DNA from: Blasia pusilla
Lineage: Eukaryota
NCBI GenBank assembly: GCA_050084515.1
Contig: CM114271.1
Location: 37,386,001-37,450,000, forward strand
Direction of reading: 5' to 3'
DNA length: 64,000 bases
Part shown: one piece after another, positions 1 to 43,721 of the stretch
Layout: the number at the start of each line of letters is the position of its first letter
Numbering within the stretch: position 1 is the stretch's first letter
Position numbers and translations under genes: made by a program
The notes under the pieces: model-generated
The model's input: the letters and a program-made list of their open reading frames with translations, nothing else
What the model was told of the DNA's origin: nothing
The model's database searches: none

Positions 1-1790
1 ACATGTCGATGTCGCTCCTCAGCAACTGCAAATCTCGATCCCAACTCGATCGTGGAGACAACTCCTCCAATCAGCAAGTCATACTCCTCTCGTACTAAGG
101 CTGCTCAAAACTCCTCGATAGACAGTGCGGTCCCAGCGGAACAGTGCGGCGTTGCAGGCAGCATGGAACGGCTACGAACGGCACGGCCCTCGATGGTGGG
201 ATGCGGCACTCGGCGGCATACCCTCCTCAATCAATAATAATCCCACACTCTTCTCCACAATGACGGTGCGGCTCCGCGATCGAGACGGTGCGGTGCGGCC
301 ACGAGCGGCACAGCACGGCAATCGGCGGCGCGTTGCGGCTACGGGCGTCACGGCACGATACTCGATCGTCGTCGGGGCGGCTACCAATCACAACATAGCA
401 GCATGAAATCAAAACTCAAACACCATAACCGGAGGTCATCTGCCATCACTTGTTGATGAAGAAATTGCGATGACGGTGGCGGCCGAAACAAAGTACGTGG
501 TGGCGACGCAAGTCAAGGAATCAACGAACGTCGTGGAAGACCCTCCACTCCGTAATGGCGGCAATGGCACCCAAAGGGTGGACAATGGATGGTGGACCGT
601 TGACAATGACGGTTGACCGTTGATTGTGATGGTTGACCATCGACGACAAAGGTTGACCGTCGATGGTGATGGTTGACCGTCAACTGTTGAAGGTGACTAT
701 GATGGCGACGGCCGCCGCCGGTGTGGCGGCTGATTTAGGGTTTGCACAATTTAACCCTAAAAATCGCCTAGCAATGGTAGCTTTACAAGATTGACCATAA
801 CTTTTTGGTCGCAACTCCAAATTGCGTATTGTTTGTTTTACAGTGTGCACAGCTTCAGGATCTACGCGAGTATCAAAAAATATTTAGAATCGGATATTTC
901 AGTAAAAACTGACAGGGAATGTCGTAAAGCCCAATGTCTCTTTCTCCTACACAAAATTCGGTAGCGCTCCCGCACTGATTTCTCCCAACGAAAATGTAAC
1001 ATCTGTAAAAATACAAATCAGCAAGCTACATGGTGCTCCCGAGAGCACCAGCATGGGGCAACCTGCCCCCATACTCAATCCCTATCAAAAATTGGGCAAT
1101 GCTTCCGCGCGCCACTCTTCCACACAAAAAATCGGCAAATGCAAAGAATAATGAAAGCAGCCCTTGCTCCGGTGAGCACTCCCATGAGCCGCTGAATGGG
1201 GAACACGGTCCCCAACCTGCAAAAACAGCGAGTGACCATCAAGCTCCCCCATGAAGCTCTCTCACTCTCTCATTCTCTCATTCTCTCTTTGTAAAGTAAG
1301 ATCCAATCTCTCTCTCCACCATCTCACACCATAGCTCTCAAAGGTGTGCACTCTCTCTCATGTCAAACCAAACCCACTCTCCTAATGAAAGGCTTGGGTT
1401 ACACTCACAAGGCAAGGTACCATAGCTCCGCCACCTCATGCCAAGAGGTTCAACAAAGAGAGAATGAGCTCTCAAGCTCTCTCTCCTTGAGGTATACCCC
1501 TCCCCTCTCCCAAGCTCTCTCCATGGTAACCTATTCTCCCAAGTCACCTCCTTGGATCTTGACCTGATGTAGGAGGTCAAGGGCCACTTACCAGAAATAG
1601 TAATTTGATCATATACTCAAAATGGTACTTACCTAAAAGAGTAAGTTCCTCAATATGGCTCCAAATGAGCCGAAACGAAGGGGAAACCTGCTATCTCAGG
1701 TTTCCAAGGGCCTGAACAGGTCACCCTCGACCTACTGGGCGTGTCCTCCACTACTCATGAAGGCGCTCTATTAGATTCCACCGATCTATC
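1..1790 (-). mobile_element. Degenerate LTR-retrotransposon-like segment (unclassified, possibly Ty3/gypsy RT/RNase H remnant plus internal/LTR-like sequence)
   Basis: Minus-strand translation near 400-570 gives AIAAITEWRVFHDVR*FLDL and TSGYGV, weakly like Ty3/gypsy RT-thumb/RNase H. The segment also holds a 20-bp tandem array, a telobox inverted pair and a CT-rich LTR-like stretch at 1250-1560. Confidence 0.3.
591..690. repeat. 20-bp tandem repeat, 5 copies (GGTTGACCGT core)
   Basis: ggt(t/g)gacc(g/a)t starts at 591, 611, 631, 651 and 671. Confidence 0.9.
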
Positions 1791-1859
1791 CTAAAAGACG
1801 TGACAGCATTGGAGATATTTTGGTACTTCTTGTCTCGTTGTTTGGATGCCATGAGTTAG

Positions 1860-1935
1860 CATGGGATCATGCGTGTTTGTGTGTGTGTTCGGTGACAGCG
1901 ATGTATGTTGTGTAGCGATGTGTATGGGCAGGACA
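1860..1935 (+). repeat. Remnant of repeat B (3' terminus) of the DNMT-retroelement family
   Basis: gtgacagcgatgtatgttgtgtagcgatgtgtatgggcaggaca matches the B1/B2 ends at 26281-26325 and 26894-26938. A second partial copy lies at 2164-2217. Confidence 0.65.
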
Positions 1936-1937
1936 TT

Positions 1938-2163
1938 GGAAAGCAAAATTATAAGTTTGGCTTGAAAGAAGCAACCTAAAATTACTTTATCTTCAATAGA
2001 GGTTGAGTACAAATGAGTAACTAATGGAGCATGTGAGGTAGTGTGGCTTCATCGATTTCTTGTTGAGATTGGTGTTAGTAACTTAAGACCTAGTGTAATA
2101 TATGTTGACAATATTACTAACATCAAGCTTGCTAGTAGCCTTGTGTTTCATGCTCGAACAAAG
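1938..2163 (+). pseudogene. Ty1/copia RNase H fragment
   Basis: Translates to ...KKQPKITLSSIEVEYK*VTNGACEVVWLHRFLVEIG...VIYVDNITNIKLASSLVFHARTK, the canonical copia RNase HI pattern (KKQxxVALSSTEAEY...DN...NPVFHARTK), with stop codons. Confidence 0.9.
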
Positions 2164-2349
2164 ATTTGTGTGCATGACAGCCGATGTATGTTGGTAGCGA
2201 TGTCTATTCGCATGATAGATGTCTATGACATATGTATTCTCTCCATGCAACACCTCAACTTGTCTTGCTTTAATAAAATCTTGGCTCTTACTTGAATTGA
2301 GACCCTCTTCATATTACTATATTTGGAAGGTCTTGCAATGATAAACCTA

Positions 2350-3245
2350 CCACTAGCCAACTTAATCCAAATCTCTAGACCCTTCAATACAACCAAATCA
2401 TGCATGCTAAATACAAAGGACTCATATGACACACTAATAATTGATGTACATGATTTCAATCTCCTCTTGTCAATTAGTGTTCAATCTTTGGCTCCCAAGT
2501 CTCCATCATGAGTACGGTAGGACTCTCTAATGTAGGTTTAGGTTGCTATTATGAAATTATGCAATGTTGGTTGACCACCAACACCACTTAAGTGCTCACA
2601 TGCAACCAACTCCAACATCTTCACTCTTAGCACTACTTGGTGATGAAGACCATGTATCATGCCTACTACAATGGATGCCAATTCTTGATACCCAACAGAT
2701 CTATAGGTGTCTGTCCAAATCTCCTTTGGCCTTGTTCCCAACCGTCTCATATACCTCCTTGATACGCAACGCGCTCAACACTTCTAGAGATATGACATGT
2801 CTTGACTGCATTATACATTGCTCAACGTTGGATGGACTGATCAACCACTCCTCAATCATCCAATTAACAATGTTAATTGGATGTCCTCCCCTTATCTAGC
2901 AATCGATCAATCCTAACATAACAAACCTACAATCACCAAATGGATGTCACCCACCAAATCTAGATCTAGCGCCCCCAATATTGAGATACACCTAGGCAAG
3001 GATATACTTTGGTAATCCTTCTTTCATGGAGTTCATGAGAGATATGGGAATCTTTGCCTGGAATGAGCCAAATGTTGTATTGAGACTTGCCTCAAAGTTT
3101 TATCTTGCTCCACATGCAAGTATTGTTATACACGTAGTCATGCTTATAATATGGTCACCAATCCAATATTGATCCCTTTAAGGAGATCCAATACTCTCAC
3201 AACCCCCCTCTTCATATTGCTACAAAATTGGTTTGGTATCCAAGG
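2350..3245 (-). pseudogene. C5-cytosine DNA methyltransferase domain remnant within the retroelement
   Basis: Motifs occur in canonical order: motif I VRVLDLLKGINIG (3162-3194), motif II YLHVEQD (3102-3122), motif III region ISIL, motif IV DIHLVIVGLLC* (2913-2948, equivalent to DLxxxGxPCQ). Motif VI (ENV) is not recognisable. Many stops and frameshifts. Confidence 0.75.
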
Positions 3246-4739
3246 ACGTCAACGTAGTGTTCTCCACTACCTCAAACATATTTGTCTCGTCTTGACATGA
3301 TGTAAAGGCCTCACTCCAAGCCATTTGCACATCGTGTCTGCACTCCATCAAAGAACCCCAATTCAGGCTAATAAAGACACCTCCCGTCCAAAAACAAATA
3401 TTGTTATTATAACTCTCCTCTACATAAGAGAATTGACTATAAGCATCTCACCTCTATAATCATGACGACCCTTAATTGCATCACTTAGCTAGATGATAGT
3501 GCTACAAAATGATGATAATATTGCTATCTCTCCTAGTTTCTTATGCAAATAAAGACTCAAGAGCTAGCTTGTTCATCAATAGACTTCCATCATGGCCTCT
3601 AAGGGTGTTGTCCCATGGGTTGCATCTTGGAGTTGCACGCAACCCCAAGAAATGGTTGTCTGGTAGTTCTCACTAATTTTAGGTTGAATACATATCCTGT
3701 TATTTATAGAACATGGCCTACCACTCATAGAACAACAACCTTGGATAATAGAACTACAAAGGGGAAAAGAATTTTAGATAGAGAACAATCCATGCTTTGG
3801 AAATTTTTAGTGGCTAGGAAGGGTGTGAGTCCATACCCCTTTCTTGCACCCAACATTTTTTGGCGCATAATTTTGGCAACCTCGCACAAATTTTACGTCT
3901 CTAGCGTCAAATAAATGATTTTTGCTAATTTCATTTCATTGGATGAATGTTATCTTGTGTAACAATCGGCGTTGCTAAGCGATATGAGCCCATGGGATAA
4001 GGCCCGAAGAGGCCATGTCCTAATGATAGTTTAGGATGAATCCCATTGGGTATAATATCACTCCATCCAATCACTCTTTCCTTGGCCCACACCAATAATT
4101 CATCTATAAGATATTTTAGCCAAATCCTCACCAATATTTAATGTTGGGAGCTGAACTCAATTATACATGACCCATTTATTGAAGTTTGAGTCCAAAATAG
4201 ACATTGCTCGAAATTAAACAAGAGCTAGGCGGCTAGGCCAAACTGCATAAAACTCGCATTCCCCCACATCAAGTTTGGGCTGCTCCTGAAGCCAACAAGA
4301 CACTCTACGGACACTAAATTATGCTTTGTAGACTAACCAAACAAAAAAGACCACCTCAGTTTTCTAAAAACATTTCTCCAAGTACAACCATAGTGCACTC
4401 AACAACAAGTCTAGCTAGCATCTGCATTGGCCTCGCGATCGTAGTATGCCATGACCTCATGGTCAACATCCCAAGCATACGCGCCAAGTAGAGGTCCACC
4501 ACTTCCTTCATAACTACCTCTAAATATATAGGAGGAAAAAACACCATATTGACTACAACATAACATGGTAGCCAAAACAAAATTAAACCTCAACATGCCT
4601 TCCTCCGAAGGTCATAACATATGAGGCAAAAAACCATCGGGTGCAATATATGGCTATATACATCCACACCAAAGCCATCAACACAAACTCCCTTCAGCAT
4701 CAGTAACGAATGCTAAGGTGCTAAAATACATCGCCAACA

Positions 4740-6290
4740 TCTAACCTTAGGCTAGTCTTATCGGAACCCATGGATTGAGTCATCATAGCCTCAGACAATG
4801 TAAGGATTGAGTTAGCCTAGTATATCTATTCGCTTCTCCTTGTTGAGAATCCAACTCCATTTATGCTTCTTGCATAAGCATGGTAATTGTCTTTGTATGT
4901 TCGACCCTACACATGCATTAGTGATCGTCCTAATCTCTAAGTCCTTGCTCCATATGATATCGATGACCAATGTTAGATAATCTCAATGCCATTGCTACAA
5001 ATTTCTACTACAATAACTTTATATGCGGAACCATTCCAACCTTGCAACAAGGTTCTCCCTTAGTCCATCTAGGTGGTGGGCCTTTGCTTCCTCCACGAGC
5101 ATACCCTCCACCTTGTCTTAATCTAGGACTACTTACTCCAAGATCTTTAGCTCTCCTCACTCCTCGAGCTCAATCTTACATCCTCTTTTGTACTCTCTTT
5201 GCCCTTAGCTCAAATGTAGGTTGAATCATCACTTACAAGTATGGCCATATTATTGATATTGGTCATGATGGAAGACTCATGGCTAGGGTCCATCCTATCC
5301 AATCCAAGGGATGGTACTATGCACTCACTACCCTAATATGCACGTGTAGTATTTTTGGTCATAGTCCCCACCACATGACCAACAAACTAGCCAACAAATC
5401 AACCTTACTTCTTGTTGACCCCCATTTGACAATATGGATCTTAACTCTACACGCTTGTAGTTAGAATATTGGGTGGCCTCTATAGGCCACCAAATATGCG
5501 AACTTCCTCTCTCATCATCTTTGGTGCATGATGTTGCACCAATACTGGAGTCATCCCTCGCAATACCTCCATTGAATAGCTCAAATTTTCCACACTTTAC
5601 TCTGCTATGTTACTCTCAATGCACTTAGCCACCTAAAAATCCTCTTTCAATATAGATCAAGTTTTATGTAGAAGTGTTGTATGTCTGACTTCTCTCTGCA
5701 AGTTATTTTCCAATATCCCATACCATGCCTAGATCGCATCAGGGTACTTCACTCCTCGGGGGATGCTAATTAACCACCTCAAATTAGAATACGCCGCATG
5801 TAGACTGTGTCTCTTGCCTGCTTATGGAGGTGGTGGATGCACCAATGTTTCTTGATTTATACCCCTTGATAGTTATTTTGCAACTCCATTAAGAACTTAA
5901 CCATGGGATTGAACCTCGGCTAGACAGGACTAGATGATGCAACCACCTCTCTAAGTATCACCTACGGTTGAGGAAACACCCTCTCCTAGTTCCTCCTCGT
6001 CATCATAAATGCCTTAGTCCATGACACATAATTTGGGTCATAATATTTATTTGCTCAAGACCTATCTTAATCTCTACAACAAATTGGGTGGAGAACTTGA
6101 GGTAATTGTCCATTGAGAGCCTCTCAATCTAGGTGCTGGAATATACCATATCATGGAAGGGTAGTTCTCCGGAGTTTCTTCGCCTCTATGAGTCACACCT
6201 TCTCTTGAAATCTTTTATGATATCATGTAACTCAATTGTACTTATGGCCCTAAACACGTATGTGATCCTCTACCATATATGGTCTTCAAT
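4740..6290 (-). pseudogene. Retrotransposon gag (capsid plus two degenerate Zn-knuckles), copy 3
   Basis: Collinear peptide similarity to the gag at 23396-25000 and 45608-46620. Confidence 0.75.
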
Positions 6291-6595
6291 CTTTTATAAC
6301 CATTCAACGTCCTCAATGATGTGATCACAAACTCCTTCTTTGAGTCCTCTCCTCTATCTAAGAATGACACAAAGGGGTTTTGAGGCGATTCCTCATATGA
6401 AGATCCTTGATACTTCACATTAGTTTATATGAAACCTATGTCATCACTCTCATCATTTACCATCTCAAGTCCTCGAAGGGATGTCGTCATGATGCTTATT
6501 ACCCTCTTGCACGATCAACTCTCAATATCATTGAAGTGATTGTTAATCTTTGAACTCTAAATAGGCAAGACTTGAATATGCATTTTCATATGATC

Positions 6596-6622
6596 GTGTG
6601 TGTGTGTGTGTGTGTGTGGGTG
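6596..6622. repeat. (GT)n microsatellite
   Basis: gtgtgt run seen directly. Confidence 0.9.
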
Positions 6623-7551
6623 TAGCATGTTAATACACAATGTAGGGCGATGACACTCTACAATCTACATCCTAGAGTGTAGCATAAAAAACAAACACCT
6701 ATCTAAGGCATCCCACATGAGTCTATGTCACTGATTCATACATTATACTGCTTCATGCTTCTGTGCCTATCCACATGACAACTTGCACAACCAAAACCCT
6801 CAAAAACCCTTCACAAGTGTAAGACTATTATTAGAATGGATAACTTGAAACACAATGACCAGGCTATTCAATAACCATCAATAAGTCATCACCAATGTAG
6901 TTGCATCATTAAAACCTCCTTTTATTAGCAAGTCGTATGCCTCAATGTTGATATGGATCACTACTCCTCGACAATGCAATGTGGAAACAAGCAATTATAT
7001 TTTTTCTCTTGGCAAATACTCATTGCCTTTAAGCCAATGCAACTCTATGTGTAAGACAATGTGGTGCAATGCTACAACAAGCACCACAATGCGGAAAAAG
7101 AGGCATATTATAGCTATGGTATAATGATAGCAACATACAATACATAATTGACTTCGGGAAACTACCAAATATTATTATGCTATGCATCATGGAGCCGTTG
7201 GGAAAATGAATAGTAAAAACTCATAATTTTTCTTGTTCACACAATCGTTGTCTATGAAGCCATCCATACAATTCTGTATGTGTAGATGGTGTCTAAAAGT
7301 GTAGATTATAACCACCTTTTTTTATAAGGAGGTAGGAGGTAGAAGGGAAGAGAAATTTGGAGCAATGGTTGGAGTTGGGGAAGTGGAAGCGAGGGGAAAC
7401 AAAAGTGCAACAAAAATATGAGGAGAAAAGTTGGAGTTAGGGAAGTGAAAACATATCCTAAACGTCGGATCAACGGAGGGTAACGAGAAAGAAAGTTGAT
7501 TATCTGATCGCAACTTTGCTATCCTTACTTTTTGATTGACCACATGACATT

Positions 7552-8137
7552 TATCTCATCTTATTTTAACGTACGCAGAGTTCTATCGCGTCGACGGCAT
7601 AGAGAGCCAACGAGTTGTTCGGGTGTAACTTCGTCCCGAGATGTCGGATGAGGTCACCAACCTCATCCTATATCTTGCTCAATAGGGAAATCCTCATCCC
7701 GAGATGTTTTCGGCAATGTTATGTTCCCAACATAACATTGCCGAAAACAACGTTCCCAACGGGTTTGTTTTGTAGGGAACGTCATTTCTGGAGATTTTCC
7801 TATTTTGGTTTTAGTCCGTCAAGTGATTCATTGACCTAGTCAACGTTCACCCGATAACCTGTGCATGCAGATTATTGTTGGTAGGGCTATTTTTGGGGAA
7901 AGAGCCTTTTGGCTCTTCACAAGGATATAAGAGTGAGGAAGATGGCTTTCCCAAACCATCTTTCTCATGTTGAGTCTTAGGAATGCCTCTCTTGCATAAA
8001 CGCATGTGGATGTGTCGGAGTTAGGATGGTAGCATCCGGATTCCCTCATAACGGAGGGTGGATGTGGTTTGATATGCCGGTGTAGATTCATGAGTGGAGT
8101 TTAAGGCCGGGTGAACCATTTTACTACTCTGATTTTA
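7552..8137 (+). repeat. Terminal repeat A1 (5' end)
   Basis: Aligns with 26328-26798 and 43722-44205, e.g. agagttctatcgc...gggtgtaacttcgt...gatgtcggatgagg, aagagccttttggctctt, and tgtagattcatgagtggagt...ttactactc. Confidence 0.9.
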
Positions 8138-10088
8138 CATAAGAAAAACACGAGGGAGCAGGGAATTCGTTGTTTGCAGGTGAGAAAGCGAGTCGCCTCA
8201 ATGGGGAGTCCCTAGATATGCTCGTTGACATGTTTGTTGTTTTTCTCCATCCGAAGGGTCGTATGGGGAAGTGCTGCTCAAATTTTCACGGGTAGCGGAC
8301 TAGAGTAGAGCAACAACAAAATGGCGGACAGGGTGCTCGGGTGTAGCACGTCTCGTGGAGAACAGCGGGAATGTCGGGAGAGAGAGGAGGTTGGGACGAG
8401 TTAGGAGAGCAGAGGGGGCCGATTCGCGTGGCCGCCAAGTGTCACACAGAGGGATTCTGGTGGATAGGGCGCTTAGGGACGCGCATCAGGGGAAGGCGGT
8501 CACGGAAGGCGCGAGGAAGGAAGGGGGTCGCAGCTCCATAGGGATTCGTGCCATGCCGAACGCCGTGTGGCATGTCCATAGGGCGACGTGCCCATAGGAG
8601 TTATAAGGGCTCCCAGGCCGCGGCAAGGCAAGGCTCCAAGGAACCAGGAGGTGCGGATGGTATAAGGTAGGAGGAAGGTGCTCCAAAGAAAGTGGGACAC
8701 CTACATAGGGCGCCGCGCATAGTTGGGGACCGGGTGAGACAAGGGCCCGGAAGGTGTGAGGTGGGTTTGGGGGTAAGAGAGTAGAGTGAGGGTTGGCTGC
8801 ATAGGGACGCGAGCCGTTCCAGCTGAATGGAAGGTATTTCGAAGGAGGAAGAGCGATTGCGGACAGAGGGCCGAAGGAGAGAAGGTACGTGGGAAGAAAG
8901 GAGGGGCTCATGGCATAGGGGCGCGTGCCCAAATGCCAAGGGGCCACAGGGAGTTAGACGTTTTGACGAGCCGGGAGTGCATGAAGTAGGAAGGTGCCGC
9001 CCACTAGCGACGGAGAGAGGGCACAAAGTTGGGACGCCGGACATACATGGTAGGCAAGATACCTAGTTGAGCGGTCACTAGAAGGAATCCGCCCAATAGA
9101 CATTAGAAATTATAACTACATGTAATTGCAAAAGATTATTTATCACTAATAACTCTAATTTATAATTATCCAGATCTTAGTGTCAAAAGACTTGTTATTT
9201 GGGATATGTAGTTATTAATTGATACGTTATGATGATGATCTTGCTTGTTTGTGTTTAATGATGTGGATCCTAGTCATCTTGTGACGTGGAATTGAATGTA
9301 CAATACTTTATGATGACGTGGAAAAGGATATTCCTAGACACGTGGTATCTTTGCACTAAAGTTAGTTGTTATTTTGTGTCATATGAGTAAAGACAATACA
9401 TTTAGTTGTATAATATATTCACATATCTACTTATAAAAAGTTCAGGTGTCCATGTATAATATTTTGTTCCTTCTAGTGATATCTTTGCACTTACTTCCTA
9501 CGGATTTGATACTAGTTTTAGTTAATTATGGAATTGTGCTCTTGATAAATGTACTTCCTTTTCTTGATTGAAGTTGTAAAAAGTAACTAGAATGACCTTT
9601 GAATGAGTGTATGTAGTCGTAACAAATGACTAGGATGATTTTTTAAAGACTATATGTAGTTCTATATATAATACTAATCGTTGTACAATTGAATGTAGTT
9701 TTTCCCATACATTCAAAAGCATCACGTGCATCTTTATATCTACTATGAGACCTGAATTGTTTTCCTCCATACAATGATGAGATAATCCCAGAGGTTGAGA
9801 GAAATGCATGCACTTCCAATCACTCACAAATAAGGTGGTTTAATTGAAACATTGTTGACTTATCAGATAACTAAAACAGTAAGAACTCAAATCATTCAAT
9901 TGACTAAAGCCACAACACATATGAAGAAGAGGATTATATTGCCAAACTCCATAAGTAGACCAGAAAAAACTTATTGAAACATGAGAGAGAGATTATTCCA
10001 AAATATCTTCATATTATATAAAACACTCAAAAACTTCAAATACATTGCAAATTATGTTTATTAAAACAGAATCCTAGAAGACACTTCT

Positions 10089-10556
10089 TGTTGGATTCTC
10101 AACATCCACTTCTCTGAGCATCATTAATCTGATCGGCCCCCTTCTATGAGGAGAAGCCTAGATTGATGGTTCCGACTTAGACATCGAAGCAGTCATAGTA
10201 ATATGATGTAGGTGGTTTTTGGAGTAGCGTTACTAGGATTATCTAAACGTGTATTAATGCGCCGCGCGGGTCCGAGGGCGCAGCCCATGGCAAATTTGGT
10301 CTATTAATAGAAACAAAGAAAAATATGTTAAAAACCCTAGTTTCATGAGTAGTGAAATAGTCAGGAGCCGCAACAATAGTGTATTCTCGTATGTCGAGTT
10401 ATCTCCATGTTCAGGTTCCATCGAAGCTCTTCTATGAGCCACGGACGGACTAGGCCACTTTGTATCTTCAAGTTTTGTAAAGATTTCAATGATTTCGTCA
10501 CTTTCTGTTTTCTCACACTTCTACCATAGCTAAAACCGCAATGCAAAATATATTCA
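10089..10556 (+). mobile_element. Copia solo LTR nested in the CACTA element
   Basis: Begins TGTT and ends TTCA. Similar along its length to the 5' LTR at 40738-41297 (ggccccctt...gacttagacat...caacaatagt.tattct...tttgtatcttcaag). TSD not recognisable. Confidence 0.6.
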
Positions 10557-10568
10557 GTAGAACAAAAA

Positions 10569-13500
10569 CTAGGACGGAGGAGATGGGCACTTCTTCACAG
10601 CTTTCTCATACCAAAGCACTGAAGTATTGAGTACATGTTTCATGTGTATCTGTGGAGGATCATCTTGCATGTTTGGAAATGGTAGCGAGGCTCCTTGATC
10701 ATTCACAATGATAACATCCACCTTCACACATCCAAGAGGAATTTCCTTTCCATGGAAGAAGTCCCTACCCACTATCCCAAATATTCTTCCTAATCCCACA
10801 TGTAACCAACATTTTCGCCCCATTGCTAAGAATACCTCATCTCCCACTGCCAACTGCACAAAGAACACATATTTACTATCAAAATCACATAATTAATTTC
10901 TTTATCATTCACTTTCAAATAAATTTCAATGATTTTATTCTGTACCTTCATTATACTCCAACCATTTTGCGGAATGTTTGAAGAAACTGTAAGTACCGAC
11001 TTATTATCCATGTATTTCTACAATGAATAGAGATTAAAAAAATCAATCTTTTGATATCATTCTATAGTAGCTACGTATTGTCCCAATGTCCAAACTCAAA
11101 CAAAAAATCAACAAGGAAATATCAAAATACTCACAACATTTTTCTCTTTGCTCTTGAATCGTTGCGATCAATTTCTTCTTTGTCTTGCTTCCTCTTTGTA
11201 GGATCTTCAACATGCTCTCCAACTTTAGGAACTAGAATACTAGGTGGATGAATGTGGGTGCTTTCCATAGGATCAGAAAGCTCCTCTACAACGTCATCAA
11301 GGATTTTTACAAATACCTGTTTTGATGCGCCTACATCAGAAAGGATCTTGGTCTTCTCAACGTCTTCTATTATTTCTGGTAGAGCTTCTTGAGCTTGGCT
11401 AGAAGTGGGGAGAGGACTCACAAAAGTAGGCTTAATCTTTTGCCCTATTATACCAGCTGAGGAAGAGTCTACACATAAAGGTACCAAAGGGGGTTCAAAG
11501 ATAGGGTGCAAGGATGAGGTGGTTTTACTTGGATTAGTAGGTGGGGCACAAGAAGCTCCAACTTTGGTTAAGTGGATCAGCATGGCGATCATTTTCTCTA
11601 TGTAAGACTTGATCGCCATTAATTATATCTTTGTTGACTCACTTGCTTTATCAACAAGATCTAGTGTAGTGGTCAAGGTGGAGACCCCACTCAACAAGAT
11701 TAAAGAATTAAATTAGATCTCTGATTTCAGTAGGAACTATAATACTACAATAAATGAAATAGCTGAAATAAAAATAATTTAGAAAATAAACACTCTTCCA
11801 CATAGTTAAGTGATTTACCTTTGTTCTCATAGTTTGGAAGCTTGGATTAGGTTTTATTGTTCCCAAAGAGCCTTCAATGTCTTGCAATGAAGGACTCGGC
11901 CCCTGCTCTTTCTTCTACAAGATAGAGGAAAACCAAACTATCATAGAATGCAAGCAGAAAAACATGAAATAACAAAAAAAAGGACTTTACAACAATATTT
12001 TTAAGAGAAAAAGGCAATGAATGTAAAATATGGTTGTAAAAAATGTTTTATTTTACTTAACTAAACTCATCAAAACATTGTTGGCACCTACATGTTCATG
12101 CCTACCAAGAGGATTTGGGTTTTCCGCCTTGGATCTATTCACCTTAATGCGTACTGATCTTCCTTGTCTCATTGGAGATAACCAATACGCTTTTAAAGTC
12201 TCCCACAAACATGAGCTCACATATGGAGGAATGGGACAATGAGCCTCACCTCCTAGCTCCATCCATAGCCTCTTTAGGCGTACCCTCTCTCTTTTCATTA
12301 TCTCTTGCAATGAAAAGAGCCAAAAATTCTTAGAAAGTGCATTCCCCACATACTCATATCGGGAGTCAATCTCCCTACGAATAGTCTTCACGTCATGCTC
12401 TTGTTTCTTACTTACATCCAGTACACTAAGGTCAAGGTGGCATTGAACCAAGACCTTCACATCATCATGCCACGACGCCTTTCCTTCACAACCGTAAACA
12501 ATCTCACCATCTACCGTGACCTCAACAGTTAGCTTCAACCCTGCATGCTCTTGGACCTTGCTTGCTGCTTTCCAAATATAATACTCTTCCTTCCTTCGCA
12601 TTTGCTTGATAGATCAGGCTGCAAACAAATGTGTCACAGAGATTGAAAATTAGTCTAGAATGTCTTGCATATGTAAGATAGCTTCTAGTACACTCATCCA
12701 TATGGGAGCACTACTCAGTAAAAAAATTAGAATAATGAAGAAGATTTGGCACCTAACTCATGATCACTTACCAATAGGAGGTTGAGGGGTTGTCCACTCT
12801 TGTGCTTGTCGTATGGATTAGACATAGAACTTAGAGTTGGAGGGGGTGGGGGTGGGGGTGGGTAAAAGTTTGCTTGTGGGGGTGGCCCTCATGGGCTTGG
12901 AATTGATCCCATGGTTCCTATAGACTCCAAATTTTAGATTTCATAAGTATATTGATCATACTTAGAAGAATAGAAGCAATCCATAACTTTGTGCTCCAAT
13001 CTCCTTACTCAAAAAAAAGGTTGCGCACAATGAAAATACAACATTTAACGGAATATGAAAGGAAGTAGAGTCTAAGAAATACAGAGCATGGACAATCAGA
13101 TAATTAGAGTACTTCCTTTTTCTCACTTCTCACCGTTCATAGGAGGGTCCCATTGGGATTGCATTGGGTATTCATGGGGATACCCAAGCAGTGGCCACGG
13201 ATAAGCCCCCATAGGAGGAAGAACATAAGGGTTTTGAGACTCCTTTTTCTTTTCAATTGGACTCAAGTCTTATAAAATAAGAATATATATGTGACATAAA
13301 AGATTATTAGAAAGCATCCTTACATTTCAATAGTGGTCATTATAGATTGGAAATTAAAAGGGCATAATCATGGCACCCATATTGGAAAGATAAGGTTAAG
13401 ACTTACATATTGAAGTCCTTTCTTGCCACACTTTTTCAGTTTGAAGGGAGATTGCATTGGTGCTGTCAGGATTGGCATTGAGTCCTCTAGACTAGACTAC

Positions 13501-13670
13501 TCAAGGGTCACATCAAAGTCTGGATCTAACTCCAAGTCATCCCTCTCCATTTTGTCTCCAATATCATCATCGGAAAAAATCTCCATGTATTTTTTGGTTC
13601 GTTGCTCAAAGGTCAATCAAACCTCCGACGCTGATGATCCCACTCCCTCACTAGCATAACAGTTTGAGGC
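10569..13670 (-). pseudogene. CACTA accessory TnpA/Ptta-like multi-exon gene
   Basis: Spliced fragments on the minus strand. 12053-12601 (WHDDVKVLVQCHLDLS...MKRERVRLKRLW...CPIPPYVSSCLWETLKAYW) resembles plant Ptta/En/Spm transposase. The last exon 10569-10860 (FHGKEIPLGCVKVDVIIVNDQGASLPFP...VLW) resembles the TNP1/DUF8039-type C-terminal domain. The 5' limit is approximate. Confidence 0.65.
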
Positions 13671-14595
13671 ACTACGAGATATTAAAACAACAAGGCTATA
13701 AATACTCCTCAATGCCAACTCTAGTATCAACATTCCTAATACATAGTGAAATGACACACACATACAAAGGCACAACCTATCCCTATTACAACAACTACTA
13801 ACTCAAGTTTATATCAACTTCAAATCTCATATTAAGTTTAGAATAATCAATGGCTATCGAAGTATATTTTTCACTTTATGCAAGTAGAGGGAAAGATTTA
13901 GATAAGGAGAGGTTTAGGGTAGCAATACCATCGATTTGTGCCAAATCTATAGAACGCTTCCCTTACAAATGCATATCTCTCTTTATCTACTTATGATTAA
14001 TCGAGCAATACAACTTGAACTTTGAGCCCTTACGCATACACAATCATTCTCTGGAATTTAATTTGTGAGTAAGAATGCACGTCCCTTCCCCCCTCCCCCT
14101 CCCACCAACAATTATTGATCTCCACTTTGCTAATGTTGTCGGCCACTTGGCTAGTGGCTCACTTGAGATACAATGAGAGCACAAAATTGTATATAAGATT
14201 ACTTTTAAAAGAAAATCTATTTGACCAATCTCCTCAACCAACAAAAAGAGTTACCCTTTTCTTAGCAATAAGGAAAAATGTTTCATAATAGATCAAAGTT
14301 CAAATCATAAACAAATGAAACAAGAGCTTATAATCAAATATGAGAAAATCTAACACAACATGATCAAAATTCACAAAAGAAAGAAATTAAATGGGAGCTC
14401 AAAATCACAACCGAGGAAATGGTGAAAATTTTGAGTCAAGCTCTAATAGGGTTACCAACCAGCACTTCACATAGTTCTGAATGTGAATATAAAAAAAGTT
14501 TGATCGCATTATTGGCACATATTCTCGTGAAATAAAATATTCACAAGATTATAATGAAAATCATGACTCGGATTGGTAGAGAAATCTGGTCTCAC

Positions 14596-17460
14596 TCAAG
14601 AAGATGAATAAGTATCTGAGCCACTACTTTCTACCATCTCTTCTTCAAAGTATAAACTTGTGTCATTCCAAGGTACTTCTAAGTCTTTTACATGGGTACC
14701 ATTGTTGGTTACGTCAACAAATGTCATTAAGGCTTCTTCTCTAGATACAATACTTGCCCCAACTAATGACACTTTTGGCACTTGCAAGCTAGCTCGACTT
14801 GGCCCAAAAACCCTGAAAGATGGATCTTATCATTCGCTGAAAAATCAAAGCCTCCTCCTACCCTTCTAGATCTAGTTGGTTTCTGCATTACTACTTTCCA
14901 ACCTAGCTTTACTTCAACATATGCATAGAAAACCTACTCTATTTGACTTGGAAAGACAAGTGGCTTGTGATTTATTTGTACACATTTTGCGAAGTTGGCC
15001 AACTATAAACTATTATTATCAAAGATCATACTTGCATCTTGAGTACCCCAATTTGAGGAAACCCATTTTCCTCTCATGAGCACTACTGGATCCTCTAACA
15101 TCCCATAATCCAATACTAGGATATCTGTCAAATTTCCCACATAAGGATACTAAATTGATTGGTCAAAACCATTTGCATTTGGAGCCAAGAATACAGAGGC
15201 AATACCTGAATCATACGTTCTATAAGCACTACCCTCATCAACCCTGTAGTGATTTTCATATGCCCTCATCTTCTTATATGAAATATATGTACGAGAGGGA
15301 GGCACACTCAATTGTCATGATAAATCATCTACTTCCTTACCATCACGAATCCATTCCCTTATCTTACAACGTATTCATTCAGGAAATGGGACGTCACACG
15401 TAATCTCATCTCTATAGATTCTGCAGAAAAAAAAACCCGAGGCGTGTTATGAGGTGTTCACTTTCAAGGTAGAATCCTCACTTGGATTAAAACTTTCAAT
15501 AACTAGTTATAATATTAGAAAAATAGAAGATAAATACTATCAAAGAAAAACTTACTTAATCCAAGGTGTAAAAAATTTGGTATTCTGCAACACATAATGA
15601 TTTGGTATAGCAATAAGCTCAGCACTCAATTGATATTTAGAGCCAACACCCTCCAAGATCTCACCAATTACGCCTTCCTCCTCGGACGCATCCCATACTC
15701 TTGTGCTTGTGACTGAGCAATCATGCATATATTGTGTTATAAATCCAAGTGCCTCATCCATAATATATCTTTCGGCCATGCACCCTTCAGTTTGAGCGCG
15801 AGATCGCACATATCCTTTCAACACTCCCAAATATCTCTTGATAAGGTACATCCATCGACATGAAACATGACCACATATGCTGAGTTCCTCCACTAAATGG
15901 ACCATAAGATGAGTCATAATATCAAAAAATGATGGTAGAAAGTGGATCTCCACAAGGCATAAGGTTTGTGCCACGTCTTCTCTCAAGGAATTCAGACCAC
16001 TAGGATCCCAATTTTTAACGCAGAGACGTCAAAATATTTGTGACATGCGCATGATGGTCATACGAATTGGAACACTCATGAGATTCTGCAAACAATATGG
16101 GAGTAGTTGTTGCATGAAAATATAAAGATCGTGGGACTTCAAACATCCTAAATTTTTCCTTAACTTATGTTTTTGTAAGGCACTTGCATATTCGCTAGGG
16201 GCTTTTAAGGCTTGAACTCTTGCCATGAAGATTCTAGCCTCCTCTGGTGTCAACACATAATTTGCCTTGGGTTTCAACTTCACTCCTGCTCTATTGGGTT
16301 GAGATTGGAGCCACAAGTGTGGCATGATCCCTCTTACTTCCATGTCAACCCTCACCTTGGCTGAATCCTTTTTCTGAAGCACAAAGCTGGTTTTCAAGGT
16401 ATTGTCGGCCACGTTTTTCTCGCAATGCATCACATCTAGTGTGTGTCTGATCGACAAATCCTGAAAATGAACAATGTATTTTTAAGGTTGGTGTAACCAT
16501 ATGGAAAACAAAAACAGGAGAATGTAAATAGGCTCAAAGTTGTGAGGCCTGCCCCATAGTAGCTCACCTTCCAATAAGGTAGGTCAAATAGTACGCTCCT
16601 TTGTGCCACTCTATATACTTTGAATGGATCTAGGAGGGGTTGGTCACCCCTCCTTTTCCTGGTCATGGGACCCTCATCAATAGACCCGCAGCTGATGCTA
16701 AAACATCAGAGCTTGATACCCAACTTGGTGCCCCACGACATTTAGTCCTCAAGCTGAAATGACATGCCATTCGACTCCTATATGGGTGGTTCCTTTCCAC
16801 ATAGCGCCGATGACCTTGAAATATGGGCTTATGTAAGGGTTTAGAGTAATCTAAGTCCACATGTGGTCCACATATTGAACAAGCAAGCTTTCCTTTCGTG
16901 GCTTCACCAGAAACTACACCCAATCCTAGATAATCATTAATAGTCAAGATGACCATGGCTCTGAGAATGAAATGTTTATTAGGAAGTTGACTACTACTAT
17001 CATGAGCCAAAACACCGTTCCACAACATTCCTAACTCTTCCATGAGGGGAGCTAGATAGACATCTAATATGTAATTGACTCCTTGCCCAGAATTGTGAGG
17101 GCTAGCTGGAGGAAAAAATTCTTGGTACATAGCCAAGTCGGGAGATTATAATCGATCAAAACCACCGGCCTAGTTGACCAAACACTATTTTTATCACTAA
17201 ATGGATTCACCCCATCTAATGCTAATCCAAGCCGACAATTACGAGGCTCATGACAAAAATATGGCCACAACTCATCTATTTTCCTCCATTGTTTTGAATC
17301 CCTTGTATGCCTCACTTGTCCATTGCACTCTTATTACTGGTTGTCCAAGTCATTAACCCAACAATAGTCTTGCATCTATATATCCTCTTTAGCCTTGGAA
17401 TGATTGGAAAGTGTCTAAGAACTTTTTATGTTTGTCATTATTGTGTGACCATAGAACCTA
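14596..17460 (-). pseudogene. tnpD: CACTA TnpD/Tnp2 transposase (Transposase_21, DUF4218, DUF4216), frameshifted
   Basis: Hallmark peptides RHFPIIPRL, EPRNCRLGLALDGVNPF, DVYLAPLMEELGMLW, RHTLDVMHCEKNV, LKSHD and FLPSFFDIMTHLMVHLVEELSICGHVSCRWMY. GT-AG introns at 16461-16567 and 15421-15555. Confidence 0.95.
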
Positions 17461-18976
17461 TCTGCTGAAAAATACCACAACTAGATAGACACCCCATAAA
17501 CTATCGCGATTTGCTAACGGATAGTGCCTTGATAGTCACTTCGAACATGCATGGCTCATTCCTTTCTACAAGTACTATCTACACAAAGAACCAACTTAGT
17601 TTTCATATTTGGAAAACCAAAAGAAGAGAGGTTATATGAATGAAAGGATTGTTCTTATTGTCCAAGAAGACCCACTGGTGATATGGGACTTTGATTTGGA
17701 AAGTTTGCAATATTTGATTTGTACAAAACTGTAGCCAAAGTTTGCAATATCTGATCTGTTCATAACCGTAGCCAAAGTAAAGGTCATGTAAAGTGCACTG
17801 TCCCAAGCAGTGGTCCTTAGCCATTACATAGATGTAAGTATTTAGCAATTAGAAGTAGTTTGAGTAGCTATGAATATCAGTCATTCTACGGATAGCTTCC
17901 TCGAAGTGAAGGAATGCGAGTATAATAATGTCACGATGAATGCAAATGAAAAGATAATGCTTTCCATCACCACGCATTTTGGAACTACAATGTCTATGTA
18001 GAGGGATGTTTAATGATACCTCTTGATGGAATAAATGAACGAATAAATATTTTCTTATCCATGGGTGACTCACGTAGTCACAAGTACTCATTAAGTATCG
18101 TCTGTCAAAGCCTTGCGACCATAGATCATTCTGCCATTCCCACAAGCACAACTGATAAGCCATTTGAAAAAATCTAGTGGAGATGGTAGAAGGTTTCCAT
18201 AATCAGGCGAACCCATCCAAATCTTCAAGGCCATGGAATTCTGAAGCAAAAAGATCTGTGAGGGCAGATCCACACCCAAAAATATGTGTGCGAGCCAAGA
18301 TCAATCCCATATGCACATCTTTAGCGATCCGTGTCCAAATAAGTGGAATGACCCACTCAAACTCTCACACCTGAAAGCTTCAATAGCCTCCATTGAAATC
18401 AAGAATTTGTTCAATTACATTGAAATTCCACTCAGGAAATCACCGAATTCCATAACAGCAAAGACCAACAAACAAATAGACATTTTTGAATCATCATCAC
18501 TACCACAACCGCGATAGAGATATTCGTAGGGAGGCCACCTTGTATCAAACTAACAACAAAGTCCAAGTCTAAAAAATAGGGAGTGGTGTGAAAGAAAAGA
18601 GAGATTTTTGAAATCACACCGGTGGAACTTCAGTAAGGAAATGGGCAGACCATTCATGCACTGATGGATGCGGAGCCAAAGAGTGGTAGGTTTTCACTCT
18701 AATAGCAAAGGGAGTCCAACATCCATGAATTTTTCTAGCTCCGGAAGTAGGAGCCAATCATGGACAGTGTTTTGGCAATCTGAAAAGAAGGAAGTGGTAG
18801 AAGTTTGGCATGGGAGATCAAGCAGAGACATGAAGCCAAGAGATGTCAGAGACATGAAGCTGAGAGATGTACAAAATCATTCGAAGCCGTGCTCGCCTTG
18901 AGCTTTCAATGTAATTGATGCAGATTATCGGAATGCCCGACCATTCTCCCAATCGAGCTTCAAGGACAAGCAAGTA

Positions 18977-18978
<2 letters not shown>

Positions 18979-19055
<77 letters not shown>
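18979..19055. repeat. (GA)n microsatellite
   Basis: Perfect AG run. Confidence 0.98.
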
Positions 19056-19060
<5 letters not shown>

Positions 19061-21820: not shown

Positions 21821-21941
<121 letters not shown>

Positions 21942-23395
21942 GGCCATAGTTTCCTTCCTAACGTAGAGAGCTCAGTTGATCAAAACCTAATGCTCTTGCT
22001 AGATGGTGTCCTCAAGAAATTTATCAAGAAACCTCTGTTCAACCTAGAGTACGCGCTTACAGCGAGAAACAAGCTCCAAGAGTTTAAGAAAGTACCGAGA
22101 GGATTTGGAATGAGAGTTTCGAGAAAATGATGTGGCATAATTTTCCAACTTGGCAATAGTTTTAATATAGCAACTATACTTTTAACTACATCAAATTATT
22201 TCAAATACTACTAGTCGTAGTCTAGTTTTATTTTCAAATGGCATCTTGTGGATTAAATTTTAATTAAAATTGATTTACCATAAATACCACGTCTTAGTTA
22301 TTTTGCACTAATATAGTAATTTTTAATGACATGTCATTAGTTAATAATAATTACATTAATTTGTTTTATTAAAAAAAAATCGTGTCATACCCTCTAGTCA
22401 TTCTTAATAACTGACTAATACTAAATTATGCCACATATGACTACTTAGTTATATGTAGTGGTGTTTTAGTCTTATTGGACTCTAGTTATAAGTGGCTTAG
22501 TGCTAAAAACACCATATTCTTTCTAGAAGGTGACTGTGGTTGACGTGGGTAATGTGGTAAGAACATGGTTGAGGCCATCGCGCAAGGATAGAACCAGACG
22601 AGATGAGGCGTGTAGACCTACGTGGTTAGGAGCAGAGATGCAAAATTTGGGCTACCTTGTTGGCTTGTAGGAGAGATTGTCATGACTTGATTTTGGCAGA
22701 CATGCTAGGATTTGCGGCGAGGGTTGTGAGGGAGATATAGGCGCCGATGCTAACGGAAGGTTTGACGTGTTGTTCGAGGAGAGTGTCGAGCTACGGAGGT
22801 TGCCATATCACATGGAAGAGTGAGTGTTGACAATTCAGTAGGTTGGAGGGCTTGACCAAATTACCCATTTGAGTCCCTTTTCCCAAACTTATCTTGTGTG
22901 ATTGAGAGTGTTGGGTATCAGATAGTTGTTGGTGTTAGATGGGTGTAGCGATGGTGATGAGTGTAGACCCCTTTCATGTGAAGCATGTTGGTGGACATAC
23001 GGCGGTTGCCGAGTAGGGGTCGTGTGTATGACCCGAGAGAGTCAGTAGTTTAGGTGAGTTAGTTGGGAGGCTCATGGAAGCCCGAGTGTTGAGTGTGCGT
23101 GAGGCCAGGTGTGTCATCACGAGATTGGCATTAGCGCGTGTGAGGAGTATGGTAGACTCTTAGTGAGTTTGAGTGCTTGAGCACGTGAGACAAGGTTGTC
23201 ATCACGACGTTCTTCTAGGGTTCAAAAGAATGGGGTAGTACGAGCAGTGGTAGTGGAGTGACATGGAGTGGTGTAAGATATCGAGGGGTTTCGAATGAGG
23301 AACCACCCCCACTCCCATCAGTGGCTAGATCGTCATTACTAGACAGTGGGTCACGTGATAAGATCACAGACGGGGATGGTGATACGAGGAGAGAG

Positions 23396-25730: not shown

Positions 25731-26003
25731 TTTGTAGGGGGTAGTGATGGTTGATCACATGAGCATACGGCGACCGCGTTGGGAGCATTCACAGGTGATG
25801 TTAGAGGATCAGGAGGGTACAGGGTGAGGAGCACACATGCAGAGGACATTCCCGTAGCGGATAATCCCACAGAGAGACATGATAGGGTGGGTGTCTCTTC
25901 CCATGATGCGGAGCTTCGTTATTATTTTTTGGGATAAGCGTTGAGATGCGTGGAGTGCAGACGAGCTCGTGAGGCATGCGTGGAGCCGTGTCTATGTTTG
26001 AAG

Positions 26004-26115
26004 GAGGGTACGAGAGTGTTAGATCTCTTTGGAGGGATTAACATGGCGGGTTGCTGTAGTGTGGCAGTGTTGTAGGGATAATGGCACCGATGGTGCTAGA
26101 TATATATATGATAGT
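26004..26115 (+). pseudogene. N-terminal remnant of C5-DNA methyltransferase (motifs I-II), copy 1
   Basis: EGTRVLDLFGGINM followed, after a frameshift, by VAVVWQ...RYIYD. This is the SAM-binding motif I (VLDLFxGxG) and aligns with copy 3 VRVLDLLKGINIG...QYLHVEQD. Confidence 0.7.
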
Positions 26116-26186
26116 AGATCATGTTGGGTATATAGGTGCTTACTATCTAGAGTTAGGGGGACCCAACTACCAACTAGGGGGGCGGT

Positions 26187-26938: not shown

Positions 26939-26942
26939 CATT

Positions 26943-43400: not shown

Positions 43401-43721
43401 TTTTTTGGCTCAATCAGATTTTTTCCGAGGGGAAATAAATCCAAACCCAAACCATTTTGTGATAGACTTAGGATGGTTACAAAAACATGTGTTTTACTAA
43501 ACTATTTCTTCAATTTTCCTCACTTACCTGAAGCACAAAGATATTCTTTTGAGTAGAAGTTTACACTTCCTTCAAAATTCTTTGTGGTTCATCCCTTCTC
43601 CACTCATGGAGTTACAAATGAAACTATCTCTTCTTTTCTTGTATCAACACCAAAAAGAAACCCACTTGTCATCTTCTAAGTATGGACATTTCGATAAGAT
43701 AACACTTGAATCTTAGGCATT

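Follow-up and report, generated by a model that had tools for sequence, protein, structure and literature searches.

The window, the 64,000-nucleotide stretch of Blasia pusilla DNA that was analysed, very probably carries three copies, old and no longer active, of a Ty3/gypsy-type liverwort retrotransposon family, whose intact members encode a DNMT3-type cytosine-5 DNA methyltransferase (DNMT). Searches with tblastn using the Marchantia proteins P0001 and P0010 as queries revealed that gag and protease are common to the copies A, B and C (Table 1) at the protein level. An earlier note on this DNA had likewise described three copies with a common gag; its copy numbers, however, do not match the order of its own list. 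Copies A and B are 76-80% identical at the DNA level, whereas copy C is similar as protein only. All three copies are dead relics, and of the Ty3/gypsy order, the window retains gag, protease and DNMT, followed by no more than the beginning of the second reading frame (ORF2).

In copy C, the DNMT relic matches the family DNMT profile with 51.9 bits at positions 8-115 of 367, and the segment is 47% identical over 93 amino acids to residues 883-974 of P0001 of Marchantia polymorpha. A phmmer search of 2541-3203(-) against 1.84 billion representative proteins gave 18 matches with E<=1e-3, the best of which has an E-value of 1.7e-15; PF00145 was found in two of the three top matches scanned (P0016 and P0017, not P0018). 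The match lies far beyond chance. The peptides quoted in the earlier note are located where it had placed them, namely VLDLLKGINIG at 3162-3194(-), YLHVEQD at 3102-3122(-) and DIHLVIVGLLC at 2916-2948(-) in copy C, VLDLFGGI at 26016-26039(+) in copy A and LDTTPIVWQ in copy B. Its assignment of motifs I to IV to copy C is supported by the extent of the profile match; however, motif IV is degraded and reads GLLC-stop instead of GWPCQ, with the cysteine kept, the proline lost and the glutamine turned into a stop. Motifs VI to X of copy C are undetectable, with nothing aligned past profile position 115 of 367, and intact motifs IV (PCQ), VI (ENV), VIII, IX and X are absent from the relics of the window, copy A having motif I only. 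The PF00145 search of the window proposed in the earlier note returned no match: among nine frames of the three copies, in which stops were filled with X, PF00145 was absent at E<=1, eight of the nine frames gave no Pfam family, and there was a single sub-threshold match to DUF3382. Pfam searches of stop-filled frames are too insensitive for copies so decayed. Because the window frames are blank in Pfam, the identification of the DNMT rests on intact relatives rather than on a direct PF00145 match.

The remainder of copy C follows the same order. In tblastn, its gag is matched over 5564-5809(-), its protease over 4281-4454(-) and its DNMT over 2889-3194(-); the protease also gives a weak family-profile match (i-E 0.039). 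By eye, LDTKPIL fits the motif L.TTPI.W, which is conserved in P0001, P0005 and P0015. The start of the RT-bearing frame is also matched by tblastn at 2268-2417(-), and the copy is truncated near 2230, past this start. A 5' repeat was searched for in copy C and none was found; with the proteins of the intact locus L033 as tblastn queries, copy C stays undetected, being too diverged.

Copy A corresponds over 23423-25874 to residues 12-805 of P0001 (tblastn E 1.5e-146). Beyond motif I, the rest of the DNMT, RT, RNase H and integrase are all missing, and copy A is an internally deleted gag-protease derivative. The insertions in its leader include a CACTA-type transposase on the minus strand, with PF02992 and PF13960 matches at 15555-17145(-). 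Copy B corresponds over 45608-47703 to residues 1-875 of P0001, of which 202-396 are missing, and matches the family profile at 46213-47706 with 239 bits; its protease region gave 15 matches among longer proteins, 13 from Marchantia and one from Sphagnum, the best being P0001 (44% identity, E 8e-101). Copy B ends 7 residues short of DNMT motif I, in line with the earlier statement that copy A keeps this motif and copy B stops right before it.

Table 1. Features of the three element copies in the window
Copy	Feature	Position	Strand	Evidence or remark
C	whole copy	2230-6530	-	gag, protease, DNMT and ORF2 start in collinear order
C	gag remnant	5564-5919	-	tblastn P0001 169-250, E 2e-7; P0015 79-163; profile match 5573-5815
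C	protease remnant	4263-4457	-	tblastn P0010 97-154, E 5.8e-5
C	linker LDTKPIL	3223-3243	-	directly upstream of DNMT, in other frame (frameshift)
C	decayed DNMT3-like domain, motifs I-IV only	2889-3212	-	profile and pairwise match
C	start of RT-bearing second reading frame	2266-2469	-	41% identity over 68 aa to P0010 708-772, pairwise E 8e-9
A	whole copy	7552-26938	+	extent as first listed in the earlier note
A	5' terminal repeat A1	7543-8137	+	leader follows, to about 8388
A	nested foreign insertions in leader	8389-22752		the corresponding part of copy B spans about 500 bp (44458-44954)
A	gag, two CCHC knuckles, aspartic protease	23393-25874	+	broken over three frames; profile matches
A	CCHC knuckles	24287-24325, 24388-24429	+	motif positions
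A	protease DSG	25371-25394	+	motif position
A	DNMT motif I relic (KEGTRVLDLFGGI...)	26004-26078	+	family-profile positions 8-21
A	3' terminal repeats	26185-26938	+	B1 26185-26325, A2 26326-26798, B2 26799-26938
B	5' terminal repeat A and leader	43718-44458	+	similarity to copy A repeats
B	gag (knuckle region deleted), protease, linker	45578-47706	+	tblastn P0001 1-202 and 396-875
B	protease DSG	47005-47028	+	motif position
B	linker LDTTPIVWQ	47677-47703	+	motif position

The ends of the element are split direct repeats: A1 is followed by the coding region and then by B1-A2-B2. The 5' end has A alone, and two equal LTRs are not present. Within copy A, 7762-8137 is 83% identical to 26434-26798 and 7543-7654 is 79% identical to 26319-26425, and B1 and B2 align over 141 bp with a score of 104. 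The leader of copy A (7768-8388) shares 67% identity with copy B (43839-44458), whose 5' repeat is 69% identical to 26328-26796 of copy A. The A...B-A-B layout was also found in three of the eight loci examined (L047, L060 and L054); L045 has an A pair only, and in L033 no terminal repeats were found, as its contig is probably without the element ends. By eye, the four bases CATT flank copy A on both sides; as they also precede copy B, they may belong to the element rather than to a target-site duplication.

Intact relatives are found in Marchantia, Calypogeia, Sphagnum and Closterium as well as on many metagenome contigs. Their first reading frame encodes a Gag with two CCHC knuckles, an aspartic protease and the DNMT3-like domain, and after an in-frame stop the second encodes RT, RNase H, a DDE integrase and a PHD finger. 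In L033, an uninterrupted ORF1 of 1369 amino acids with protease and PF00145 is followed by TAG and, in the same frame, by ORF2 with RT, RNase H, integrase and PHD finger. P0041 and P0064 each combine protease and PF00145 in one protein, and P0010 shows the order protease-DNMT-RT-RNaseH. In P0010 and P0015, gene models from Marchantia and Sphagnum, the predicted splicing, judged by eye, clearly bypasses the stop region. All 15 long loci examined have ORF1 ahead of ORF2, with gag-protease-DNMT before RT-RNaseH-integrase, which supports the earlier proposal of a C5-DNMT between protease and RT. An in-frame stop with CAA or CAG precedes ORF2 in 12 of these loci; the exceptions are L047 and L060, which have no stop in that frame, and L076, where the stop stands in a different context. 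Most of the relatives have decayed too: of 80 metagenome loci, only 5 retain at least 300 amino acids of DNMT without a stop. In a second type of element, the DNMT lies between RNase H and integrase instead of after the protease. The two types correspond to two DNMT clades (support 100/99) and are 43-44% identical in RT-RNaseH, 34-46% in integrase-PHD and 35-41% in the DNMT. Assignment of the family to Ty3/gypsy follows from the protease-RT-RNaseH-integrase order and the Ty3-like RT (L033; all 15 long loci), and Ty3 Gag-Pol (7q5b) is matched by the family profile with E 8e-16. A DIRS element was considered and ruled out by the DDE integrase (Integrase_H2C2, rve); no phage-integrase (tyrosine recombinase) domain occurs among the Pfam matches of the relatives.

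As the earlier note had expected of intact family members, the relatives match the C5-methyltransferase profile: PF00145 was found in 30 of 32 aligned members, and P0001 scores 35.6 bits against a curated cut-off of 22. Among solved structures, the family profile ranks DNMT3A first (E 1.7e-24), followed by DNMT3C (3.6e-21), DNMT3B (1e-20) and tobacco DRM (7.7e-12), and DNMT3A aligns collinearly over motifs I to X. This ranking and the collinear motifs point to a domain of the DNMT3 type. The ESM Atlas returned generic DNA-methylase clusters only. The cysteine and glutamine of PCQ and the glutamate of ENV, for which the earlier note had suggested looking, do not vary among 30 diverse domains, whose identity goes as low as about 33%; for the catalytic cysteine and glutamate, this constancy speaks for catalysis rather than for a purely structural role. 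Purifying selection on the domain is indicated by the one unsaturated pair, L033 and L035, with a dN/dS of 0.136 at a dS of 0.26; the other three of the four pairs are saturated (dS above 1.6) and were set aside. The domain is probably catalytically active as a DNA cytosine methyltransferase.

The family is abundant and sense-transcribed in this organism. Using a likeness of at least 80%, 33,772 of 12.43 million genomic reads (0.27%) fall on 22500-27100, and about 380 RNA reads per run map to this region, nearly all oriented as sense transcripts would be. The ends of reads at copy A reveal that other copies continue into the DNMT: 31 RNA reads extend past 26040 and spell out STGLALVLQAG, which directly follows motif I in the DNMT. 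RNA reads join the linker, motif I and the downstream DNMT. Read depth is 0 after about 26965, beyond B2 of copy A. The members of this organism are known from the three window copies and the reads, and the intact architecture is taken from relatives. A host DUF760 exon in the window, with 80% identity to its counterpart in Marchantia polymorpha, 70% in Calypogeia and 67% in Riccia, places the DNA in a liverwort, which agrees with the land-plant host assumed earlier. For this host-gene stretch, a search of sequencing runs listed no RNA run, a blank that carries no weight as evidence.

How intact elements might use the enzyme is proposed only tentatively as a joint sequence of steps. Since the Gag-protease frame ends with the DNMT, the enzyme would be made in Gag-like amounts and enter the particle, and its placement ahead of the conserved stop suggests large-scale production together with Gag. 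Inside the particle, the protease would free the DNMT, which could then methylate the new double-stranded cDNA or the DNA of the insertion site. Pol would be made via readthrough of the stop between ORF1 and ORF2, as suggested by the conserved stop alone, and the PHD finger on the integrase might help to choose chromatin. The window copies themselves perform none of the proposed methylation steps.

There is a sizeable, though less than even, chance that the family is real and that its DNMT does not methylate its own cDNA, but instead acts on RNA, guides targeting by binding DNA or chromatin or methylates host nuclear DNA; in the last case, it might blend in with gene-body methylation or limit copy number. 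The PHD finger on the integrase indicates that chromatin reading is part of the biology of the element and would fit such a role. The KnitGypsy-Dnmt3 enzyme of Klebsormidium nitens gave no methylation in yeast, a result its authors called inconclusive, and RNA methylation was raised by de Mendoza et al. for a LINE-borne DNMT (PMC5890265). However, all 30 sequences keep the catalytic cysteine and glutamate, the solved structures nearest to the domain belong to the de novo DNA methyltransferases DNMT3A, DNMT3B and DNMT3C, and de novo CG methylation in yeast was shown for the SymbioDIRS-Dnmt3 enzymes (PMC5890265), all of which speaks against this alternative.

It is rather unlikely that the bryophyte family gained its DNMT3 independently of KnitGypsy-Dnmt3 and resembles it by convergence. 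De Mendoza et al. take KnitGypsy-Dnmt3 to have gained its enzyme 'in the K. nitens lineage' (PMC5890265), and the two DNMT positions in related elements, together with the two clades, imply that the domain moved or was captured more than once. On the other hand, as far as KnitGypsy-Dnmt3 is described there, both have the domains of a Gypsy element, a DNMT3-type domain and the unusual A...B-A-B repeats reminiscent of DIRS, relatives occur in a second streptophyte alga, Closterium, and the two element types resemble each other in RT-RNaseH, integrase-PHD and DNMT alike. A host DNMT3 pseudogene or chance motif beside retrotransposon debris, with the fused Marchantia proteins as gene-model chimeras, would account for the blank Pfam result and the spliced models P0010 and P0015, but this explanation is rejected as extremely improbable by the RNA reads across linker, motif I and DNMT and by the recurrent domain order, which is seen in single uninterrupted frames on unrelated contigs (L033, P0041, P0064), in every long locus and at the same relative place in the three window copies, and the phmmer result speaks against it as well.

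Retrotransposons that carry a methyltransferase invert the usual picture, since methylation is a host weapon against such elements. It is possible, if doubtful, that Gypsy-DNMT3 elements form an old, streptophyte-wide lineage that persists in liverworts, including Marchantia, and in mosses, is abundant and transcribed, has a Gag-like DNMT dosage and inserts its cDNA pre-methylated. In that case, part of the methylation in bryophyte genomes could stem from enzymes that the elements carry. Liverwort and moss elements bring the question of what the enzyme is used for into testable organisms, and named copies are present in Marchantia polymorpha. For this species, host methyltransferase mutants and good transformation are available. 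The only streptophyte case described before, according to the text of the 2018 study, is an alga whose enzyme assay was inconclusive, and the presence in bryophytes questions the capture in the K. nitens lineage published there (PMC5890265).

With host DNMT3 and DRM enzymes, the present domain shares the catalytic fold and the motif order of DNMT3A/B/C; however, it lies inside a transposon polyprotein in hundreds of copies, is not rearranged as in DRM and has no PWWP, ADD or plant DNMT3 companion domain adjacent. The family resembles Ty3/gypsy elements (Metaviridae) in its CCHC Gag, aspartic protease, RT-RNaseH-integrase order, Ty3-like RT and C-terminal reader domain of the integrase, but adds a DNMT3, uses a PHD finger as the reader and is bounded by split direct repeats, not by two equal LTRs. 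Chromoviruses carry a chromodomain at the integrase end, where the present family has the PHD finger. SymbioDIRS-Dnmt3 of the dinoflagellate Symbiodinium is described as a retrotransposon with a DNMT3-type domain and A-coding-B-A-B repeats as well, but it uses a tyrosine recombinase (PMC5890265). In the present family, the integrase is of the DDE type with an H2C2 zinc domain, and the RT is Ty3-like.

Among described systems, KnitGypsy-Dnmt3 was accurately cited in the earlier note as a Klebsormidium Ty3/gypsy DNMT element. According to the text of de Mendoza et al. 2018, it is a Gypsy element with DNMT3 in its Pol polyprotein ORF (PMC5890265). No K. nitens sequence appears by name among the 66 matches, and no flowering-plant protein among the named ones; the two elements are likened by description, not by sequence. 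As described there, both combine Gypsy domains with a non-rearranged DNMT3-type methyltransferase inside a polyprotein, conserved catalytic residues (with a Ka/Ks below 0.2 for KnitGypsy-Dnmt3), a DIRS-style repeat arrangement rather than plain LTRs and a streptophyte host. They differ in that the present family lives in a liverwort, with relatives in mosses and Closterium, and accounts for 0.27% of genomic reads with a partial element, compared to few copies in K. nitens. In addition, its DNMT ends the Gag-protease frame before the conserved stop, whereas the text on KnitGypsy-Dnmt3 gives 'Pol polyprotein ORF' only. No report of Gypsy-DNMT3 elements in land plants was found in full text, and the supplements of PMC5890265 and PMC12344493 may list bryophyte sequences; a 2025 paper and a 2026 preprint, in the text accessible, mention 'streptophytes' only, citing the 2018 work. 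The present family is a real land-plant member of this already described Gypsy-DNMT3 kind and, since the kind is known, less novel than the earlier note implied.

Self-comparison of the window revealed a plus-strand pair of segments (22753-25991 and 44954-47612) that are 76-80% identical, as well as shorter repeats at 7762-8137 and 26434-26798 (83%), with a further one at 43956-44349. These belong to two copies of a retrotransposon family, copies A and B; a third, copy C, lies on the minus strand (approximately 2230-6530), is far more decayed and is detectable at the protein level only. Mapping with Marchantia polymorpha proteins shows that the window itself displays the order gag, protease, C5-cytosine DNA methyltransferase (DNMT) and reverse transcriptase (RT) frame (see table). 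Pfam finds no domain in the stop-filled frames of any of the three copies; the earlier note was thus right that ordinary tracks miss them, and the peptides it quoted are all present at the positions it gave. The window holds only dead copies of the family. An open frame adjoins the truncated end of copy C; judged by eye, this may be a Ty1/copia element's RNase H terminus, and Pfam gave no matches to it at E<=0.01.

Features of the window and their coordinates
Feature	Position	Strand	Remark
Copy A, protein homology	23423-25874	+	P0001 (M. polymorpha protein) 12-805; tblastn
Copy B, protein homology	45608-47703	+	P0001 1-875, without residues 202-396; tblastn
Copy C, gag	5564-5809	-	tblastn, Marchantia proteins
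Copy C, protease	4281-4454	-	tblastn, Marchantia proteins
Copy C, DNMT	2889-3194	-	tblastn, Marchantia proteins
Copy C, start of RT-bearing frame	2266-2469	-	homology to Marchantia proteins
Open frame beside copy C	2017-2295	+	
Copy A, repeat A1	7543-8137		5' repeat
Copy A, repeat A2	26319-26798		
Copy A, repeat B1	26185-26325		141-base unit
Copy A, repeat B2	26799-26938		141-base unit
CACTA-type DNA transposon	15555-17145	-	probably 11131-17145
Dinucleotide microsatellite	18818-19336	-	
DUF760 (PF05542) gene exons	32824-34073	+	host gene

The claim that the family carries a DNMT segment was confirmed. A phmmer search of copy C 2541-3203 (-) against 1.84 billion representative proteins gave 18 matches at E<=1e-3, the top one at 1.7e-15, and two of the three top matches scanned contain the Pfam DNA methylase domain PF00145. 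A direct comparison of copy C 2916-3194 (-) with P0001 883-974, the part of that protein from DNMT motif I up to and including PCQ, gave 47% identity across 93 residues. The proposed PF00145 check failed on the frames of the window and succeeded on the relatives, with matches in 30 of the 32 members of a larger family alignment. The copy noted as retaining motifs I-IV is copy C: compared with a profile built from 30 family DNMT domains, it covers only positions 8-115 of 367 (51.9 bits), and its PCQ site keeps the catalytic Cys but lacks the Pro and has a stop in place of the Gln. With this profile, motifs VI-X of copy C are gone or unrecognisable, and copy A matches positions 8-21 only.

The best preserved frame, with three stops in 496 codons, is copy B 46219-47706; a search for relatives among longer proteins with this frame yielded 15 matches (13 from M. 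polymorpha, one from Sphagnum fallax and one other), ten of them with a precomputed PF00145. The top match, P0001, is 44% identical across the whole query (E 8e-101). The Marchantia protein P0010 has the order DNMT, RT, RNase H, and in P0064 from Closterium and in P0041 the DNMT follows the knuckle/protease part. Scanning metagenome contigs turned up 355 segments encoding relatives, and 80 of these were kept as loci. One of these, L033, appears intact: ORF1 (976-5082, 1369 aa) contains the protease and PF00145 and ends at a TAG, after which ORF2 (5086-8226, 1047 aa) continues in the same frame with RT, RNase H, integrase zinc domain, integrase core and a PHD finger. ORF2 homology follows ORF1 homology about 280 bases downstream in all 15 mapped long loci, so that the predicted position of the DNMT between protease and RT is borne out in these loci. 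A PHD finger ends the integrase of this family (nine of 32 aligned members), as in L033 (8053-8190, ORF2 residues 990-1034) and the metagenome proteins P0060 and P0072. In chromoviruses, a chromodomain occupies the integrase position at which this chromatin reader stands here.

The stop between the two frames is itself conserved. In 12 of the 15 long loci, an in-frame stop codon (TAG or TAA) with CAA or CAG after it is embedded in otherwise conserved coding sequence (L033 at 5080-5095, L003, L009, L012, L013, L021, L023, L031, L037, L044, L045 and L054), which suggests that Pol may be made by stop-codon readthrough; the arrangement presumably resembles the leaky-stop signal of tobamoviruses. 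L076 has the stop in a different context, and L047 and L060 have no stop in the ORF1-ORF2 frame.

A second architecture, with the order RT, RNase H, DNMT, integrase and PHD, occurs in P0060, P0072 and other metagenome proteins, which represent a sister group of elements; the DNMT lies between RNase H and integrase in P0060, P0061, P0063, P0065, P0066, P0072 and P0081. Compared with L033, these elements are 43-44% identical in RT-RNase H, 34-46% in integrase-PHD and 35-41% in the DNMT, and their DNMT domains fall into a clade of their own (support 100/99; midpoint-rooted tree of 31 rows). Given these shared domains, the two DNMT positions and the distinct DNMT clade, the DNMT appears to have moved to another site within a single group of Gypsy elements that bear a PHD finger.

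As to the kind of METHYLTRANSFERASE, the best solved match of P0001 is to DNMT3A catalytic domains (E 1.7e-8), in an alignment that is collinear between motif I and the region of motifs IX-X. The family profile matches DNMT3A (E 1.7e-24), DNMT3C (3.6e-21), DNMT3B (1e-20) and tobacco DRM (7.7e-12) among solved proteins and, through its RT, Ty3 Gag-Pol (E 8e-16). An alignment of 30 domains picked from 59 (33-100% identity to P0001) shows no variation at the PCQ residues C and Q or at the E of ENV. Only five of the 80 metagenome loci retain at least 300 consecutive DNMT residues without a stop. L033 and L035, the sole unsaturated pair of four compared, have a dN/dS of 0.136 at a dS of 0.26; the other three pairs are saturated (dS >1.6).

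Repeats delimit copy A, in which A1 matches A2, and A2 is flanked by the B unit; what follows A1 is not the B unit but sequence that also occurs in copy B. This layout shows that copy A is a single element with about 14 kb of nested insertions in its leader, among them a CACTA-type DNA transposon (Transposase_21/tnp2, DUF4218), and its interior, from just past DNMT motif I almost as far as B1, is deleted. The arrangement A1...B1-A2-B2 recurs in L047, L060 and L054, whose repeats are 91-94% identical; in L045 the A pair alone is seen, and four other metagenome loci examined showed no A/B repeats. The microsatellite in the window, one frame of which translates as an extended SLSLSL series, is ordinary.

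Reads were placed on 22500-27100 at a likeness of at least 80%. Of 12.43 million genomic reads, 33,772 (0.27%) fell here, only 38 of them at least 99% alike, with depths of 250-1600 across the element as against 0-3 on either side of it. A pair of RNA runs contributed 377 and 388 reads, which over gag and protease have almost solely the orientation that a typical stranded library would give for sense transcripts. The linker lost from copy A, DTTPIVW, is encoded before 26002 in 840 genomic reads and 18 RNA reads, in agreement with copy B 47680-47700; past 26040, 31 RNA reads continue as STGLALVLQAG, the family sequence after motif I. Since RNA reads carry on past motif I into the DNMT, transcribed DNMT-bearing copies exist in this organism. 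Relative to the read majority, copy A has A for G at 169 places and T for C at 143, with 68 and 39 reverse changes. In copy C (2230-6530), G+C is 40% and the CpG ratio 0.38; for copies A and B (22753-25991, 44954-47706) the values are 51-54% and 0.70-0.76. Methylated transposons suffer C-to-T change, which deamination of methylated cytosine is expected to produce, and both the base differences of copy A and the composition of copy C fit long decay of this type. The only clear host gene seen encodes a DUF760 protein, whose exon at 33690-33926 is 80% identical to M. polymorpha (79 residues), with lower identities for Calypogeia fissa (70%) and Riccia fluitans (67%). The host is a liverwort, and not M. 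polymorpha itself.

Homology, domain order and repeats thus support the interpretation of a retrotransposon family with its own DNMT in a land plant; that this DNMT might methylate the element itself is a proposal only. Gypsy elements that carry Dnmt3 have been described from Klebsormidium (de Mendoza et al. 2018, PMC5890265), and the accessible text of that paper makes no mention of Marchantia, liverworts, Physcomitrella or Sphagnum. Citing this 2018 work, a 2025 paper and a 2026 preprint mention 'streptophytes', as far as their text is available, and full-text searches of the accessible literature returned no report of Gypsy-DNMT3 elements in land plants. The family is a land-plant member of this already known kind: likened by description rather than by sequence, and within the accessible account of the Klebsormidium elements, it shares every feature compared. 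Its repeat layout, furthermore, is the same as the 'A-coding region-B-A-B' layout given for SymbioDIRS in the available part of the same paper (de Mendoza et al. 2018, PMC5890265).
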